A stretch of DNA of 64,000 bases, from positions 11,295-75,294 of the forward strand of contig MGVE01000009.1 of the NCBI GenBank assembly GCA_001800315.1, read 5' to 3'. Below, one piece after another: positions 5,057-56,187 of this stretch; within the stretch, counting starts at the first letter, position 1; each line of letters opens with the position of its first letter. Source of the stretch: Elusimicrobia bacterium RIFOXYA2_FULL_47_53 (GTDB lineage Bacteria; Elusimicrobiota; Endomicrobiia; Endomicrobiales; XYA2-FULL-47-53). The translations under genes were made by a program, and so were the position numbers. Under the pieces are notes generated by a model, which searched no databases, was not told where the DNA came from, and saw only the letters and a list, made by a program, of their open reading frames with translations.

Positions 5057-6131
5057 AAATCGCCTCTATCCGCTGTGATTACCCTAAACTTTTTTTGAAC
5101 GGCTGAAAAATTTAATGACTTCTTGAAATGGAATGACTACATTTTTTACAACGAGATTCTTCGCCCGCCACAGCGGACTCAGAACGACGGCGTTTTGTGG
5201 ATTCCGGACAAAACATTTTAAGCTATAAGTTTTAAGTTGTAAGTTATAAGTGAACGACGCTTCTGTGTCGTCATCCCAGAGGCAGTAATCTGGGATCCAC
5301 TTCCTTGAGTCATTAACAAAATGCCATTGTTCTGGATTCCGGACGGAAACTCTCCGGAATGACGGCGTGTAGCGCTTCTGTGTCGTCATCCCAGAGGCAG
5401 TAGTCTGGGATCCAGCCTTTACAGACTGTGTGGCAATGTCATCCTGAGCGTTAGCGAAGGATCGCGAAGTTATTGTTACCATAGAGATGCTTCACTGCGT
5501 TCAGCATGACAGCAACTCAAAGTCCTCGTTAATGGCAGTTATGACACAGTCTGTTAGTCTTACTTCTGGATTCCGGAGTGGCGGCCCAATGCTTTGAATA
5601 AAATCAGCCGGCCTCCCAGGCGAATGCGAAGCATTCTTCACCCGTCCAAAGACGGGTGATTTTTCGCCGCGGGACAGAAACTCTCCGGAATGACGGCACA
5701 GTTGTGACTTAAGCCTTTAAGGGGCTTTTGGGTTGCGTACCCCTTCCGAGCCGATTATGAGCAAAAGAATTTTTGGAGGCCTTCAGTCTTGCCTGTTTGA
5801 CCTGCCGACAAGGCAGGGAGTTTGCAAGACTGCCAAAATACTTTTGCGAATGGCTCGCGGGTGGCGAGTTTCTTTATTATCGTTCTTTGCTCGCCCAAAG
5901 AAAGTTAAAATCAGGTGTCGGGAATGACGACACTTTACGGAACGCGCGGCAAGCTGCGCAGCTACGGAATCATTTTTACTACGGGATTGCTTCTCTCCCT
6001 GCGGGAGATCGCAATGACGCGGCCTTATTAAGGCTCTTGGACAGCCGTGCCAAAACTATCTTTAAAATAAAAACGCAAAACGCGAATAAAATCTATCCGC
6101 ATCTTGCCGTCAAACCGCCAGCCGAAATGCT
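5057..6131. repeat. Coding-free mosaic of nested stem-loop repeat modules (locus A of six)
   Basis: 1075 bp with no credible ORF. It is built from modules that recur at 20410-20624, 25904-26274, 40410-40761, 45985-46593 and 54520-54810. See findings for module coordinates. Confidence 0.9.
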
Positions 6132-6395
6132 CTAAGGGATGGTTTCCAGGACTTCCTCAAGCTCTTCTTCCGAACGGCCGCATATCTCTATTGTTTTTTC
6201 GCGGCCCCGCTCGCCTTTTCTCAGCAGGACCATGCTTTTCTTCACTTCAAAAAACTCGGCAAGAAACTCGCAGAGCTCGCAGTTCGCCTTTCCTTCAACC
6301 GCGGGCGCCGATACTTTTACCCTTAAGATGGAGCCAATTCTTCCGACAACCTCGTTTTTCTTTGCGTTAGGGATTACTCTGACTTTTATTATCAT
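6132..6395 (-). CDS. DUF167 / YggU family protein
   Basis: 87 aa. VRVIPNAKKNEV...LRVKVSAPAVEGKAN resembles the YggU family, and it sits in the conserved yggS-proC neighbourhood. Confidence 0.75.
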   Translation of the reverse strand: MIIKVRVIPNAKKNEVVGRIGSILRVKVSAPAVEGKANCELCEFLAEFFEVKKSMVLLRKGERGREKTIEICGRSEEELEEVLETIP

Positions 6396-6415
6396 TAAAT
6401 AAATACCCCTTTTGC

Positions 6416-20409: not shown

Positions 20410-20624
20410 TCCTCAGCTGCTTCACGGGGTTTGACGGTTAAGACCTCACCGGATATGAAAGTCACCCTGAACGAAGTGAAGGGTCTCGTTTTTCATCCAA
20501 CGACGAGATTGCTTCTCTCCCTGCGGGAGATCGCAAGGACGGCGTTTGTGGATTCCGGACAGAACACTTCCGGAATGACGGCCTGTCCGAGATGGTGAGG
20601 CGCATCCTTAACGGAGGATTAGGA
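20410..20624. repeat. Stem-loop module mosaic, locus B
   Basis: Modules at 20461-20507 (GTCACCCTGAACGAAGTGAAGGGTCTCG...ACGACGAG), 20505-20540 (GAGATTGCTTCTCTCCCTGCGGGAGATCGCAAGGAC) and 20547-20580 (TGTGGATTCCGGACAGAACACTTCCGGAATGACG). Confidence 0.9.
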
Positions 20625-25767: not shown

Positions 25768-25819
25768 GTTTATTATCTCCGGTGAAAAATCAATCAGAAT
25801 TAAAGAAAATGCTTACTGG

Positions 25820-25848
25820 ATTATATACTTTTTGTATGCCTTAGTCAA
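25820..25848 (-). promoter_or_regulatory. Near-consensus sigma-70 promoter for the orphan ABC ATPase
   Basis: The minus strand reads TTGACT (25848-25843), N17, TATAAT (25825-25820). Confidence 0.75.
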
Positions 25849-25903
25849 ACAACGCAGCGGGGCTTTAAGCCGGCCCAAATTGAACCAATTTAAAAAGCCT
25901 TAA

Positions 25904-26274
25904 TAATATCCTGCGAACCCGGAGGATGAGGCAATCTCGTAGTCAAAACGATTCCGTAGTTGCGGAGCTTGCCCTGCGTTTAAGGTAGTAGCGCGGCTTG
26001 TCGCGCGTTCCGTCGGATGCCGCCGTTCCGACACCTGATTTTAACTTTCTTTGGATGCGCAAAGAAAGTTAATAAAGAAACGCACCCCTAAGGCTATTCG
26101 TTTGAAATATTTCGGCACCTGCGGAACTCGCCCGCCAAAAGACCGGCGGACTCAGACAGTCCTCGCTGAAATCCCCGAAATATTTCTCACTCATGGACAG
26201 CCTTAAAGGGGAGCAGAAGGACAAATACTTGAATTATTTGTTTTGCTGCGAAAGCCAGTCTGAATGCGACAACG
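25904..26274. repeat. Stem-loop module mosaic, locus C (mostly inverted relative to locus A)
   Basis: 26031-26081 is the reverse complement of 5868-5918 (AACTTTCTTTG..GCGCAAAGAAAGTTA palindrome). 25950-25985 matches 5933-5970 inverted. Long hairpin at 26104-26186. Confidence 0.85.
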
Positions 26275-29021: not shown

Positions 29022-29077
29022 ATTTTGAATCAATTAAAAAACATTTTCCGGACTGAGAATTTCGGTTAAACAGGTTC

Positions 29078-40302: not shown

Positions 40303-40320
40303 ACATTTTAGACACTTAGC

Positions 40321-40349
40321 TATATATAATAATCGCGTTTCATTGTCAA
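40321..40349 (-). promoter_or_regulatory. Sigma-70-type promoter for the three-gene secreted-protein operon
   Basis: The minus strand reads TTGACA (40349-40344), N17, TATATA (40326-40321). Confidence 0.65.
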
Positions 40350-40409
40350 ATATTTGTGCGCCCCCTAACCCTCAGACAGCACCTGAGGCGTGACGGCGAA
40401 GATTTTACC

Positions 40410-40761
40410 GTACCTGTAAAGTCACACTGAACGAAGTGAAGGGTCTCGTTTTTTATCCAACGACGAGATTCTTCTCTCCCTGCGGGAGATCAGAACAACG
40501 ACAACGACACAACGAGATTGCTTCGTTCCTCGCAATGACATCCTTTTGTGGATTCCGGACAGAACAATTCCGGAATGACAGCGTGTGGCGCTTTTGTGTC
40601 GTCATACCAGCGGACAGACTGTGTGGCAATGTCATCCTGCATGACAACAACTCAAAGCCCTCGTTAATGGCAGTTATGACACAGTCTGGGAAGCTGGTAT
40701 CCAGTGGTTTTTCTGGATCCCAGACTGGACATTTCCGGGATGACAGACTGGCTTTGTGATA
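40410..40761. repeat. Stem-loop module mosaic, locus D
   Basis: Modules at 40421-40467, 40465-40500 and 40547-40580. The arms ATACCAGC (40604-40611) and GCTGGTAT (40693-40700) enclose a 75-nt palindromic unit at 40614-40688. Confidence 0.9.
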
Positions 40762-43629: not shown

Positions 43630-43781
43630 AGTTACCCTACGAATATGATTTTACATTTTTTATATGTCTTTGGCAACAAAACGCAAAATACGGATAGACT
43701 AATTCTCAGACAGAGCCGGGGCTAAGACTGGGCTTAAAATCGGGCTTTTTCAATTGACTCAAATATTGTATAATCTGCCCT

Positions 43782-45614: not shown

Positions 45615-45696
45615 AAATAATTCGGATCACTCTGAAGGGTTTGGAAGGTTATATTTAAGGGACTTCCCTTTTTAGAAAGTCCCCAAAATACAAATT

Positions 45697-45741
45697 TTAT
45701 TTCTTTTTCGCTTTCTTTTTTGCTTTTTTCTTTGCAGCCAT
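45697..45741 (-). CDS. Candidate 14-codon micro-ORF MAAKKKAKKKAKKK
   Basis: ATG at complement(45739..45741), preceded by GGAGGTGAT with 8 nt between GGAGG and the ATG. Stop TAA at 45697-45699. Too short for the ORF track. Confidence 0.35.
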   Translation of the reverse strand: MAAKKKAKKKAKKK

Positions 45742-45775
45742 CCCGATCACCTCCCTGTTGTGACACTTATCGGAA

Positions 45776-45880
45776 ATAAAAAAGCCACGCAATAAAACTG
45801 CGCGGCCAATGCTATCGGGTTATTTTCGTCGTAATTATTTCTATTCGAAAAATTGTCATTCATGCCCCTTTCAAGTTTCT
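45776..45880 (-). ncRNA. Candidate ~105-nt small RNA (promoter-to-terminator unit)
   Basis: Promoter TTGTTA (45915-45910), N17, TATAAT (45892-45887), with a predicted start near 45880. Internal 6-bp stem 45846-45851/45823-45828. Terminator GCCGCGCA-GTTTTAT-TGCGTGGC (45806-45784) plus TTTTTTATTT. Confidence 0.45.
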
Positions 45881-45886
45881 GAAATA

Positions 45887-45915
45887 ATTATACATCATAT
45901 TTTTTAATATAACAA
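45887..45915 (-). promoter_or_regulatory. Sigma-70-type promoter of the candidate sRNA
   Basis: The minus strand reads TTGTTA-N17-TATAAT inside a very AT-rich stretch (45840-45960). Confidence 0.55.
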
Positions 45916-45984
45916 TAATTTATTTTAAATTTTTTATTTATTTTTTGTGTTTGCGCGCGAACCTGGGCAGTTCTCCGGTAAGAA

Positions 45985-46593
45985 GGCGGGGTTATTCTGA
46001 TTATAACTTTCTTTGAACGCGCAAAGATAGTAAGTAAAGAAACTTGCGACGCCTCACCATCTCGGACCGGCCGTCATTCCAGAAATGTTCTGTCTGGAAT
46101 CCAGAACAATGGCATTTTATTAATGACTCAAAGAAGTGGATCCCAGACTACTACCTCTGGGATGACGACACAAACTAGTCTGTCATCCCTACCCCCGATT
46201 GCGGCACTTGAGGGCAAACTCCAGCAGGGATCCAGAAAAACCTCTGGATACCAGCTTCTGCTGGTATGACGACACGAAGAAGTTCGCCGTTCACTTATAA
46301 CTTGAGTCAATTGAAAAAGTGTTTCAGGCCGTCTTTGCGAGGAGCGCAACGACGCGGCAATCTCGTCGTTCCCGACGGAAAAGCGAGATTGCTTCACCCT
46401 GCGGGCTCGCAATGACAGGGTCTAATTAAGGGTTTTTCAATTGACTCAACTTACAACTTACATCTTAAAACTTATTACTTAAAATATTCTGTCCGGAATC
46501 CACAAACGCCGTCATTGTGATCTTCCGCAGGGAGATAATATTCTCGTCGTTTGAGGAAAAACGAGACCCTTCACTTCGCTCAGGGTGACTTTA
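45985..46593. repeat. Stem-loop module mosaic, locus E (mostly inverted copies)
   Basis: 46071-46172 is the reverse complement of 5263-5365 (10 mismatches in ~101 nt by hand). 46228-46273, 46511-46551 and 46543-46589 are inverted copies of modules seen at loci B, D and F. Confidence 0.9.
46302..46449. mobile_element. 148-bp MITE-like unit bounded by 18-20-bp TIRs (TTGAGTCAATTGAAAAAG / GGGTTTTTCAATTGACTCAA)
   Basis: Left TIR 46302-46319, right TIR 46430-46449 (reverse complement, 1-2 mismatches). The interior carries hairpin modules and has no coding capacity. Confidence 0.6.
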
Positions 46594-46660
46594 TATGTCT
46601 GATGAAATCTTCACCGGCAGGCATGGGCTCTATCCGAGGATTAGGGGATCTGGAGTATGC

Positions 46661-46689
46661 TTGACTAAAACCTGCTATTTATATAGAAT
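46661..46689 (+). promoter_or_regulatory. Sigma-70-type promoter ~345 nt upstream of tRNA-Leu
   Basis: TTGACT (46661-46666), N17, TAGAAT (46684-46689). Confidence 0.55.
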
Positions 46690-46808
46690 CTCACAGTCAA
46701 GCCGAATTGAAAACTATAACAATATATGTATGCCGAGGTGTCCGCCACTACTGCGGGCGGATTTGCTTCACCAACTGCTTCCGCAGTTGGTTCCTTGAAT
46801 ATTATAGA

Positions 46809-46976
46809 TTGAGTCAATTGAAAAAGCCTGTTTCAGGAGCGAAATTTTGGGCTTTGTGCCGAGGCAAGGCGGCCGAAGCGAGCATATGCTCCACGGAGTA
46901 TATGTAAACTGAGGACAACGAAGCCGCAGGCCAAAGGCCGAAATTGCAGCCCGAAAGAGGTTTTTCAACTGACTCA
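46809..46976. mobile_element. 168-bp MITE-like unit with the same TIR family
   Basis: Left TIR TTGAGTCAATTGAAAAAGCC (46809-46828), right TIR GAGGTTTTTCAACTGACTCA (46957-46976). The first ~30 nt match unit 46302-46449. Confidence 0.6.
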
Positions 46977-47032
46977 GAGAAGTTACAGTGTGCGGTTATC
47001 TGACAAGCTAATCAAACAAAAAATAGTTTATT

Positions 47033-47119
47033 GCCGAGGTGGCGGAACTGGCAGACGCGTCAGACTCAAAATCTGAAGTCACTTTGGGTGGCGTGTGGGT
47101 TCAACTCCCACCCTCGGCA
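47033..47119 (+). tRNA. tRNA-Leu (anticodon CAA)
   Basis: Hand-folded cloverleaf: acceptor GCCGAGG/CCTCGGC plus A; anticodon stem TCAGA/TCTGA with loop CTCAAAA; long variable arm; T arm GTGGG-TTCAACT-CCCAC. No encoded CCA. Followed by T7. Confidence 0.92.
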
Positions 47120-47141
47120 TTTTTTTAATCTATAGTTTTTA

Positions 47142-54482: not shown

Positions 54483-54519
54483 AAAAAGTCCATGCGGGAA
54501 CGAAGCAACAGTTCTTTTC

Positions 54520-54810
54520 ACGCATGGGACTCGTCATACCAGCGGAAGCCGGTAACCAGTGGTTTTTCTGGATCCCTGTGTGTGCTCACATCTCGCACCC
54601 GTTGCAAGCTTGTGCGGCTTATTCGCCGCACTGCAGCTACAGGGATGACAAACTTTACGGAACGCGCAGCAAGCTGCGCAACTACAAAACCAACTAACCG
54701 CGAGCCTGCTTCTCTCCCTGCGGGAGATCGCAATGACAGGGCCTTATTAGGGGTTTTTCAATTGACTCAACCGATAACTAATAACTTATATCTTATAACT
54801 TCAAACTTAT
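54520..54810. repeat. Stem-loop module mosaic, locus F
   Basis: Modules at 54533-54576, 54653-54684, 54705-54736, TIR-type module at 54750-54770, and an AT-rich ATAACTTATA tract at 54771-54815 that runs into the stop of the next gene. Confidence 0.88.
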
Positions 54811-56187
54811 TCAATACTTATAAGAGCTTCCCCCGATAAATTCCCTTACCAGAGAATTTTTAGGTATCGCGGAGAAATCTTCCAGCCCCAGCACTCCCTC
54901 CAGCAGGCCGTAAACGCGTTTTGCCCTTATATAGGCGTCAAGTTTTTTGGGGTCTTTTTCGTATTTACCTATTATCCCGGGAAAACCGTCAAAAAGATAT
55001 TTCTTGTACACGGGCAGTTCGTAAGGCATGGCTCCGTTAAAAACATAGTCGGCTTTGTTTATAAACGGCACGATGTATTTTTTCTCGCTTCTCCTAACAT
55101 AATGCCAGTGTCCGACCGTGCGCTCCGGATCGTATGAACGGTGCAGGGAATCGCGCACCATGCGCCGCAGCATTCTTAAGTCGGCCCAGCGCACAAACTC
55201 GTTATTGGAATCTCTTATCTGGCAAAGCGCCTCAATATAAAATTTAAATTTCATCTCATGAGGCACGCTTGAAGTCATTTCCGGGAAAAGGCCGTGCAGG
55301 CTGTCTATAAGAAGTATCTCGTTTTCTTTAAGCTTGAACTCGCGGGCATCCAGAGTCCGCCTGCCGGTTTTAAAATTATATTCGGGCATCAGGACTTTTT
55401 TGCCCTGGAGGAGAGCAAAGAGGTGCTCGTTGACAAGGCCCAGGTCCAACGCCTGCGGGCTTTCAAAATCATAATCTCCGTACTCGTCTTTTGGATGCTG
55501 GTCCAGGTTCTTGAAATAATTATCCAGGTTTAAGGCGACAAACTTCAGGCCTTTTTCACGCAGTTTTTCTCCGATTTTGGCGGTAGTCGTGGTTTTGCCC
55601 GAAGAAGAGGGTCCGGCCACTATAACCATCCTGATGCCATGCCTGCCGCTTATTATTCTATCCGCGACTTTACCGATCTCGTCATGGTAGGATTTTTCGG
55701 AATCTTTCACAAGTTTGGCGAATTTACCGTCAATTATGGTTTTGTTGAGTTTTTCAACGCTATCGCAGCCGTGGTCCACATTCCAGGTAAAAACCTTCCA
55801 CAAAACCTTGTAGGGCACATTGTCCTCAGCAGCGATTCTGGAAGACTTTTCTTCGCGGAGTTTCGCGTGCTCGGCTCTGTAAAGTATATAAGCCTTAGCG
55901 GTTTTATAATGGCCGTTTTCAACCAGCACTTTCTCAATAAGGTCCTGTATCTCCTCAACACTGGGAACGGAACCGGAGGGATAAGCCCTGTTAATCAGCG
56001 CTATAACCTGTTTGGTAAGTTTTTCCGCAAGTTCTCTGTTAGATCCGCCCACATCAACCGCGGCGCGGAAAATAGAGTCGGATATTTTGTGCGCGTCAAA
56101 GGCAACGAGGCGGCCGTCGCGTTTTATAACGCTTTCAATTTTGAGCCTGCTGATTTCCTTTTCGGGAAAAAGATATTCTAAGTTCAT
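54811..56187 (-). CDS. ATP-cone domain fused to a uridine-kinase/phosphoribulokinase-type P-loop kinase
   Basis: ATP-cone (VIKRDGRLVAFDAHKISDSI...YILYRAEH), then Walker A VAGPSSSGKTTT and a PRK/UDK-like fold. The ATG at 56187 is preferred over the TTG at 56220. Confidence 0.75.
   Translation of the reverse strand: MNLEYLFPEKEISRLKIESVIKRDGRLVAFDAHKISDSIFRAAVDVGGSNRELAEKLTKQVIALINRAYPSGSVPSVEEIQDLIEKVLVENGHYKTAKAYILYRAEHAKLREEKSSRIAAEDNVPYKVLWKVFTWNVDHGCDSVEKLNKTIIDGKFAKLVKDSEKSYHDEIGKVADRIISGRHGIRMVIVAGPSSSGKTTTTAKIGEKLREKGLKFVALNLDNYFKNLDQHPKDEYGDYDFESPQALDLGLVNEHLFALLQGKKVLMPEYNFKTGRRTLDAREFKLKENEILLIDSLHGLFPEMTSSVPHEMKFKFYIEALCQIRDSNNEFVRWADLRMLRRMVRDSLHRSYDPERTVGHWHYVRRSEKKYIVPFINKADYVFNGAMPYELPVYKKYLFDGFPGIIGKYEKDPKKLDAYIRAKRVYGLLEGVLGLEDFSAIPKNSLVREFIGGSSYKY

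Follow-up and report, generated by a model that had tools for sequence, protein, structure and literature searches.

We report that the intergenic repeats of one stretch of bacterial chromosome include a small element, which we call unit A, that is found preferentially inside the loops of single-strand-type hairpins. The stretch, hereafter the window, is 64,000 nucleotides long and comes from Elusimicrobia bacterium RIFOXYA2_FULL_47_53 (contig MGVE01000009.1, positions 11,295 to 75,294). The hairpins resemble the NTS/SRM repeats that serve as recognition sites of the Ssn nucleases. Our favored interpretation, to which we assign a probability of roughly 0.68, is that unit A is a non-autonomous transposable element of the miniature inverted-repeat type (MITE) that targets the tips of Ssn-type hairpins and is moved by a transposase acting in trans.

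The window is gene-dense chromosome of a groundwater Elusimicrobia from the Rifle series of metagenome-assembled genomes, and its locus recurs in many independent groundwater assemblies. Six long intergenic gaps (5057-6415, 20410-20624, 25768-26274, 40303-40761, 45615-47141 and 54483-54810) are mosaics of short modules anchored by GTCAT/ATGAC, a motif with a density of 7.05 per kb in these gaps versus 1.31 elsewhere (5.4-fold). An Rfam scan of the window matched a tRNA-Leu alone, and no known RNA family accounts for the modules.

A first-pass annotation, made from the window's letters, had described an empty, a singly filled and a doubly filled state of the same hairpin, and on re-reading the sequence its coordinates for all three sites were exact. 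At 46248-46267, the arms ATACCAGC and GCTGGTAT surround a TTCT loop. The same arms lie 81 nt apart at 40604-40611 and 40693-40700, with a unit ending at 40688 within. A second copy of the unit of 40614/5-40688, at 5421/2-5553, has a further 58 nt (5447-5504) inside it; with these, two GTCATCCTGAGCG..GAAGGATC-type modules (5438-5463 and 5485-5510) are made whole as an inverted pair. Empty and filled hairpins proved homologous on both sides: they share 16 nt on the left (GTGTCGTCATACCAGC), and the right-hand flanks, 40690-40721 and 46227-46258, show 97% complementarity over 32 nt. Therefore, they are copies of one repeat and not the unrelated sequences that the annotation had named as the alternative. 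The pattern was also far beyond chance: each 20-21-nt unit end occurs twice in the window and not at all in shuffled sequences. The "empty" sites are paralogous copies and not one locus compared between strains, and the short, "singly filled" unit is a single example. The sites that carry the argument are as follows.

40600..40611, forward strand: left half of an H1 hairpin (defined below), with the NTS/SRM-type head CGTCAT and the 5' stem, CGTCATACCAGC; aligns with the NTS consensus.
40612..40614, forward strand: left target-site duplication GGA, corresponding to bases 1-3 of the GGAA tetraloop before insertion.
40615..40688, forward strand: short form of unit A, 74 nt, with terminal inverted repeats at 40615-40624 (CAGACTGTGT) and 40679-40688 (ACACAGTCTG).
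40689..40691, forward strand: right target-site duplication GGA.
40692..40704, forward strand: last loop base (A) and right half of the H1 hairpin, GCTGGTATCCAG.
46244..46271, reverse strand: empty H1 hairpin at a paralogous site, CGTCATACCAGC-AGAA-GCTGGTATCCAG.
54532..54559, forward strand: second empty H1-like hairpin, with a GGAA loop and a degenerate 3' arm, GCCGGTAACCAG.
5419..5556, forward strand: long form of unit A (5422-5553, 132 nt) with TTA at 5419-5421 and 5554-5556, in a linker and not in a hairpin loop.
5438..5510, forward strand: two class-2 hairpin modules, 5438-5463 (GTCATCCTGAGCGTTAGCGAAGGATC) and 5485-5510 (GATGCTTCACTGCGTTCAGCATGAC), which form the inner inverted doublet.

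Scanning metagenomes for the left end of unit A added five loci, found in six stretches, to the two copies in the window, giving seven independent loci in all. (Stretches of collected sequence are cited by L numbers.) The termini are common to all seven, and every complete copy carries the same 10-bp terminal inverted repeats. Unit A is non-coding, multi-copy and 74-132 nt long. A perfect 3-bp direct repeat flanks each of the complete copies (6/6): GGA in three, and GAA, TGA and TTA. The empty paralogues have a single GGAA, GAAA or AGAA loop, and the flanking triplet is thus a genuine target-site duplication.

The location of the copies was far from even. In five of the seven loci, unit A lies in the tetraloop of an H1 or H1b hairpin, after the third loop base (GC-GRA^A-GC) and with GRA duplicated, and its orientation relative to the hairpin is constant in all five. 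The sixth locus is the loop of an H3-like hairpin, and the seventh, the long copy in the window, is a linker. Even within the repeat-rich gaps, loops of the SRM type account for no more than a few percent of the sequence, and the tetraloops for well under 3%; five of seven loci in such loops is a strong target preference. Hence the part of the first-pass annotation that placed insertions at hairpin tips was borne out at its main level, where insertion is repeated and site-specific, although not at the third level considered below. The combination of terminal inverted repeats with a duplication of fixed length and variable sequence argues for a MITE moved in trans by a staggered-cutting transposase, and on these sequence features we classify unit A as a MITE-like non-autonomous transposon.

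The ends of unit A have a resemblance of their own. The terminal 7-mer, CAGACTG/CAGTCTG, is the same sequence as that where loop and stem meet in one hairpin subfamily (..CAG|TCTGGGA-TCCAG), members of which lie at 40716-40744 in the window and at 106 and 739 (reverse strand) in L009, and the right junction with its GGA duplication reproduces CAGTCTGGGA. The ends may be derived from a hairpin of this type, or the likeness may be a coincidence.

The host hairpins, catalogued as GTCA, a 7-nt stem, a loop, the complementary stem and TCC, form four subfamilies.

H1: GTCATACCAGC-GGAA-GCTGGTATCCA
H1b: GTCATTCCTGC-GAAA-GCAGGAATCCA
H2: TCCCAGA stem with an 8-nt loop
H3: TTCCGGA stem with a 9-nt loop

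The layout of the hairpin that hosts unit A is CGTCAT-ACCAGC-GGAA-GCTGGT-ATCCAG. The Neisseria NTS repeat, CGTCATTCCCGCGMAVGCGGGAATCYRG, takes in the classical dRS3, and its wider relatives have been named Ssn-related motifs, or SRM (Chenal et al. 2025, PMC11893778). These repeats are recognized by SsnA, a GIY-YIG nuclease of 94 aa with a single domain, which binds the hairpin as single-stranded DNA only and cuts a few nucleotides upstream; three nucleotides that lie upstream of the palindrome govern cleavage, and the C just after it is critical for binding (PMC11893778). H1 aligned base for base with the NTS consensus, CGTCAT|TCCCGC|GMAV|GCGGGA|ATCYRG (PMC11893778); it departed from NTS at two stem pairs, both compensatory, and kept the positions on which SsnA depends, GTC upstream of the palindrome and C right behind it. 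All H1, H1b, H2 and H3 hairpins start with GTCA, the head required of NTS/SRM repeats, and essentially all copies end in ATCCA(G), in agreement with a palindrome followed by C and an ATCYRG tail.

This hairpin is not confined to the window. When one genome per species was scanned for the exact H1 stem, with the tetraloop left free, more than 114 stretches from many lineages carried it, among them Chloroflexota, Nitrospirota, Zixibacteria, Peregrinibacteria, Rickettsiales, Methylophilaceae, Francisellaceae, Xanthomonadales and Neisseriaceae. The loops were nearly always G-N-A-R, and an inverted partner hairpin often lay 15-40 nt downstream. Among H1 copies in other genomes with the same stem, 123 of 142 matched the published SRM pattern, HGTCWYN(0-2)YYVSBRHN(0-5)WNVSBRGN(0-2)RNCYNB (PMC11893778). 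Genes of ~95 aa for Ssn-like GIY-YIG proteins (PF01541) adjoined H1 in four to five loci of other lineages (L043, L070, L084, L115 and, in part, L036). The NTS alignment, the retention of the critical positions, the pattern matches elsewhere and the neighboring Ssn-like genes together lead us to conclude that the host hairpin belongs to the NTS/SRM family or is a close variant of its members. A profile search of a protein database for Ssn-like proteins gave at least 8000 matches, with no Elusimicrobia among the 120 matches listed, and was uninformative; NCBIfam holds no model for these proteins.

Two further observations concern these hairpins. In Luteibacter and its relatives, H1 forms tandem arrays of up to 10 units with a period of ~115-132 nt (L034 96-627, L039 2967-3257, L125), in which each H1 is followed by an inverted partner hairpin of the GTCACCCCGGC type. 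In the window, a match to the SRM pattern at the right end of unit A was considered as a true hairpin and rejected, as its pairing is poor.

The relation between the two forms of unit A was addressed through the 58 nt that distinguish them. The long form (129-132 nt) occurs at six of the seven loci, and the short form solely at 40615-40688. Likewise, the inner doublet is present in six of seven loci and nowhere outside unit A, and the 58 nt never appeared outside unit A in the ~1 Mb of sequence searched. The edges of the 58 nt cut inside two complete class-2 modules (GTCA-Y-NNN-GA...GAAG-NNN-R-TC), which also exist as free-standing modules in the window (e.g., 20461-20488, 40421-40448 and, on the other strand, 46565-46592) and in other lineages. 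A deletion between the bases of the two paired arms is far more probable than an insertion that chanced to restore both modules out of halves already present. We therefore favor deletion: the short copy is likely to be a derivative of full-length unit A that lost the 58 nt, probably by slippage across the inner hairpin, with a putative junction, GTCATCCTG|CATGAC, at 40639|40640. The outer 50 nt of the short copy are 100% identical to those of the long, consensus-like copy in L011. The third level of nesting in the first-pass annotation, a separate 58-nt insertion, is not supported by these observations.

Unit A is not the only sequence found within hairpins of this kind.

5566..5694, reverse strand: unit B (94 nt, 5578-5671), which interrupts an H3 hairpin whose arms are 5684-5694 and 5566-5577.
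54568..54649, reverse strand: unit C (59 nt, 54580-54638), which interrupts the hairpin GTCATCCCTGT...ACAGGGATCCAG with no target-site duplication evident.
46182..46235, forward strand: hairpin GTCATCCCTAC...GCAGGGATCCAG with a 31-nt filler.
L101 1775-1850, and L031 (reverse strand) at ~5043: nested loci of Methylotenera.

Unit B is flanked by GGA (5575-5577 and 5672-5674) at the stem-loop junction of its H3 hairpin, and L007 has a 100% identical copy at the corresponding point of another H3 hairpin; unit B has no convincing terminal inverted repeats. It contains a perfect 8-bp stem, CACCCGTC-CAAA-GACGGGTG, followed by ATTTTT on the forward strand, which resembles an intrinsic terminator, and this filler could deliver a terminator between convergent or divergent neighboring genes. 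Unit C occurs twice more, each time within another stem: once in L009 and once in L127 (the latter outside the window). Across all fetched genomes, split SRM-type stems (loop >12 nt) numbered 52, versus 13 for a non-pairing control. At orthologous loci of two Methylotenera species, the NTS stem GTCATTCCCGC...GCGGGAATCCAG encloses a 56-nt filler, and the L031 filler alone has an extra 115 nt with ~16-nt inverted ends. The apices of class-2 hairpins vary in length and are often mini-hairpins; one apex, TCTCCC-NNN-GGGAGA, is found in four outer stems.

When folded as single-stranded DNA, the filled hairpins formed nested stems in which the host stem was closed (z = -2.7 to -3.7). This was also the case for the composite of H1 with short unit A, whose stem closes around the insert (z = -3.6). 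SsnA does not need a loop of particular identity, and in vitro the loop may be taken away or lengthened (PMC11893778). Taken together, the folding and these published results suggest that loop insertions are tolerated, which would account for their persistence alongside any targeting.

We compared assemblies to assess whether the sites are still moving. All six repeat-rich gaps were identical in 4-7 independent assemblies per gap. On this showing units A, B and C are fixed, and the assemblies give no sign of the active insertion or excision that the first-pass annotation had envisaged. The sole polymorphism was in a 137-nt tandem repeat of the same genome, ~4 kb beyond the window start (L127 19145-19560), with three copies in L127, L128, L132 and L133 and two in L129 and L130; L129 has a hybrid pattern of single-nucleotide polymorphisms (SNPs) there. 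This length difference was rejected as an insertion, being a change in tandem-repeat copy number.

These results fit the following scheme. The long intergenic gaps are mosaics of NTS/SRM hairpins that form in single-stranded DNA, each with a CGTCAT head, a 6-7-bp stem, a loop, the complementary stem and an ATCCAG tail. Full-length unit A, ~132 nt long, bounded by its 10-bp terminal inverted repeats and built around a core of two GTCAT hairpin modules in an inverted doublet, would be mobilized in trans by a transposase that makes 3-nt staggered cuts and hence presumably uses DDE-type chemistry. As the loci show, it enters by strong preference after the third base of a G-R-A-A tetraloop, in one orientation, with duplication of GRA, and, being self-complementary, it leaves the host stem able to close around it, as the folding indicates. 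If Ssn is indifferent to the loop, such insertions would probably be tolerated, accumulate and nest. The copy at 40615-40688 would likely be what remained of full-length unit A once the 58 nt between the inner arm bases had been lost, and the other module-in-loop patterns would be of mixed origin: units B and C in SRM loops, variation in the length of class-2 apices, and recombination between repeats.

Several observations weigh against this scheme. There are only seven unit A loci to go on. Neither an orthologous empty site nor a filled/empty polymorphism was found in the 4-7 assemblies per gap, and the empty sites are paralogous only. No parent insertion sequence (IS) or transposase with unit A termini was found: the left end gave no matches in the genome-collection scan, where evidently the species representative lacks unit A or the element is collapsed; the inner arm and left end gave none in the viral contig scans; and metagenomes yielded MITE copies only. 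Widely spaced unit A termini, as expected of a parent IS, did not occur in any of the collected sequence, and Pfam annotation of the window neighborhood was free of GIY-YIG genes and of transposases of every type. The evidence for a putative DDE enzyme consists of the inverted repeats and the duplication. As for the hairpins, the published SRM pattern has three matches in the window and none is an H1-H3 hairpin; H1 misses through one loop base ("H") and the others through longer loops. No ssn gene (a cd10448-type gene, often flanked by the repeats) was detected in the ~110 kb available from this organism (the window and L006-L012) by GIY-YIG motif search or tblastn. The same ~110 kb contain no transposase or HUH gene. 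Phylogeny is neutral on the polarity of the proposed deletion, because the outer sequence of the short copy is consensus-like. Moreover, a stretch orthologous to 40619-40640, L006 (GCA_003512775.1), has 93 Ns in unit A followed by the long-form junction GTTCAG|CATGAC. It also has two SNPs identical to the L009 paralogue, and it may be a long-form allele or an assembly chimera with that paralogue; we do not rely on it.

The explanation that dispenses with transposition altogether holds that filled composites spread by homologous recombination, gene conversion or unequal crossing-over, as in the Neisseria intergenic mosaic elements (NIME), whose arrays are thought to be recombination substrates (PMC1797815). 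Some copies of unit A could have spread by duplication or gene conversion of a filled hairpin, as several of the GGA/H1 copies lie in similar larger composites, and the H1 and unit A copies of the window and L009 have longer composite flanks in common. Recombination clearly reshapes these arrays as well: the only polymorphism between assemblies is the two- versus three-copy 137-nt tandem repeat, one inner-module apex of the L010 unit A has been swapped for TCTCCC-GAA-GGGAGA, known from other modules, and the arms around the L009 copy of unit C look chimeric. Yet there are four duplication sequences in four contexts (H1, H1b, an H3-like loop and a linker), which cannot arise by copying one composite, and the duplicated triplet always equals the local target, whereas recombination makes no such duplications. 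Recombination alone does not explain site-dependent duplications, and we consider it unlikely as the full account. An enzyme tied to the hairpins, either of the IS110/Piv type or Ssn itself as a mobilizing nuclease, would account for the fixed orientation and position of unit A, and there are precedents: neisserial filamentous phages enter dRS3 via a phage-encoded transposase/recombinase (PMC1797815), IS110-family elements target repetitive extragenic palindromic (REP) sequences (PMC1525189), and the arrangement NTS-ssnA-NTS resembles an IS (PMC11893778). But the flanking triplet follows the target instead of a fixed crossover core, SsnA cuts a few nucleotides upstream of the hairpin and not in the loop, unit A also occurs outside hairpins (the TTA site, 5419-5556), and neither Pfam annotation nor tblastn revealed such a gene nearby. 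We hold this explanation to be improbable.

The model of the first-pass annotation was three successive insertions (or excisions) at hairpin tips by an HUH/Y1 enzyme, in the manner of IS200/IS605 or of the REP-associated tyrosine transposases (RAYT) and REPINs. In its favor, the elements are hairpin-rich and inserted at hairpin apices, the inner part of unit A is a REPIN-like inverted doublet, and the cognate nuclease of the host family reads it as single-stranded DNA (PMC11893778). Against it are the 10-bp terminal inverted repeats of unit A and its variable 3-bp target-site duplication. Transposition of IS200/IS605 and RAYT elements is not known to leave either of these, and such elements insert 3' of a fixed short target; the triplets that flank unit A vary. 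The head here is CGTCAT, with none of the GTAG/GTGG of RAYT-associated REPs (PMC2817692); no Y1_Tnp domain was annotated in the window neighborhood; and the 58-nt third level has no independent copies. We regard an HUH/Y1 mechanism as very improbable, and retain the trans-mobilized MITE as the best account of unit A.

A more general possibility is that the loops of Ssn-type hairpins are a landing pad across lineages, in which mini-elements recognize the extruded or single-stranded tip and nesting enlarges NIME-like arrays. Insertions may then persist because Ssn reads the head, stem and tail and not the loop. In a stronger version, the filled hairpins may themselves be mobile, with their arms acting as the ends for an Ssn-linked mechanism. 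We offer the landing pad only tentatively, and doubt that it will hold in this general form.

Comparison with described systems places both components of the composite. The window hairpins have the same length and layout as NTS/SRM repeats (CGTCAT, a 6-7-bp stem, a G-N-A-R tetraloop and ATCCAG), and the identical H1 stem recurs in many lineages, at times beside ssn-like genes. They differ in that the stems are altered by compensatory pairs, the loops of H2 and H3 are 8-9 nt long, the window copies miss the strict published pattern and the organism's ~110 kb contain no ssn gene. Natural loop insertions are not described in the NTS/SRM study, which reports loop extension in vitro only (PMC11893778). 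Like the NIME arrays, which were once thought to be limited to Neisseria (PMC1797815), the window repeats are intergenic, clustered and mosaic.

Elements that target REPs span five IS families (PMC1525189; PMC3184786). The closest analogues of unit A are IS1397 and ISKpn1 of the IS3 family, as transposable elements that choose small extragenic hairpin repeats. The insertion point of IS1397 is reportedly the central loop of palindromic units, where 3-4 bp are duplicated, and the geometry of unit A is the same. Unlike these, unit A is a 132-nt non-coding element and not an IS, its ends are CAG...CTG instead of the TG...CA typical of IS3, and its target is an Ssn-type hairpin in Elusimicrobia and not an enterobacterial REP. 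Bacterial MITEs such as Nezha, Chunjie and Correia (PMC3184786) are likewise small, non-coding, multi-copy and intergenic, with terminal inverted repeats, duplications and a long-hairpin fold; most of those described have AT-rich or TA targets, whereas unit A uses the apex of another repeat and carries an internal doublet of GTCAT hairpin modules. The clusters formed by REPs, bacterial interspersed mosaic elements, RAYT and IS200/IS605 (PMC2817692, PMC3333891) share with the window their mosaic hairpins, REPIN-like inverted doublets and recognition of single-stranded DNA, but the window neighborhood has no GTAG head or Y1 gene, and unit A has terminal inverted repeats and a duplication.

Other features of the window accompany the repeats. 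The tRNA-Leu (CAA) gene at 47032-47120 borders the largest repeat cluster (45615-47141), which includes ~300 nt of very AT-rich DNA (45660-45960). A 17-mer, TTTTTCAATTGACTCAA, has five exact copies in the window and seven with at most two mismatches, versus 0.06 expected. Every copy is intergenic beside repeat clusters, often directly past a GC-rich hairpin, and the 17-mer could be a terminator tail, an operator or a further repeat module. AT-rich runs of AACTTA/TAAGTT-like hexamers (ACTTACAACTTACATCTTAAAACTTA...) are a further mosaic module, in both orientations. Open reading frames of 107-132 aa lie wholly inside the mosaics; they have no Pfam hits, and although some have been called as genes (132 aa and 120 aa in L127), they are almost certainly spurious.

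43746-43762, 46302-46318 (reverse strand), 46433-46449, 46809-46825 (reverse strand) and 54754-54770: 17-mer TTTTTCAATTGACTCAA, with weaker copies at 29025 and 46961.
5219-5251, 46448-46480 and 54775-54810: AT-rich hexamer runs (ACTTACAACTTACATCTTAAAACTTA...), also in L009 and L127.
5084-5482 (reverse strand), 5773-6135 (forward strand), 40436-40759 (forward strand) and 54492-54839 (forward strand): open reading frames within the mosaics.

As a loop-targeting MITE, unit A is a further case of a known behavior and reveals no new transposition chemistry. It offers a clean example of a small MITE whose structural target is defined, and this could help to trace its transposase. The finding joins two things that have been described separately, the Ssn/NTS hairpin system and hairpin-targeted transposition, and should be most useful for work on Ssn/NTS repeats, REP-like elements and MITEs. 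It extends the NTS/SRM hairpin family to the Elusimicrobia and provides natural Ssn-type hairpins that carry precise loop insertions with a stem still able to form, which fits the dispensability of the loop in vitro. Insertion into loops suggests one route by which mosaic repeat arrays arise.

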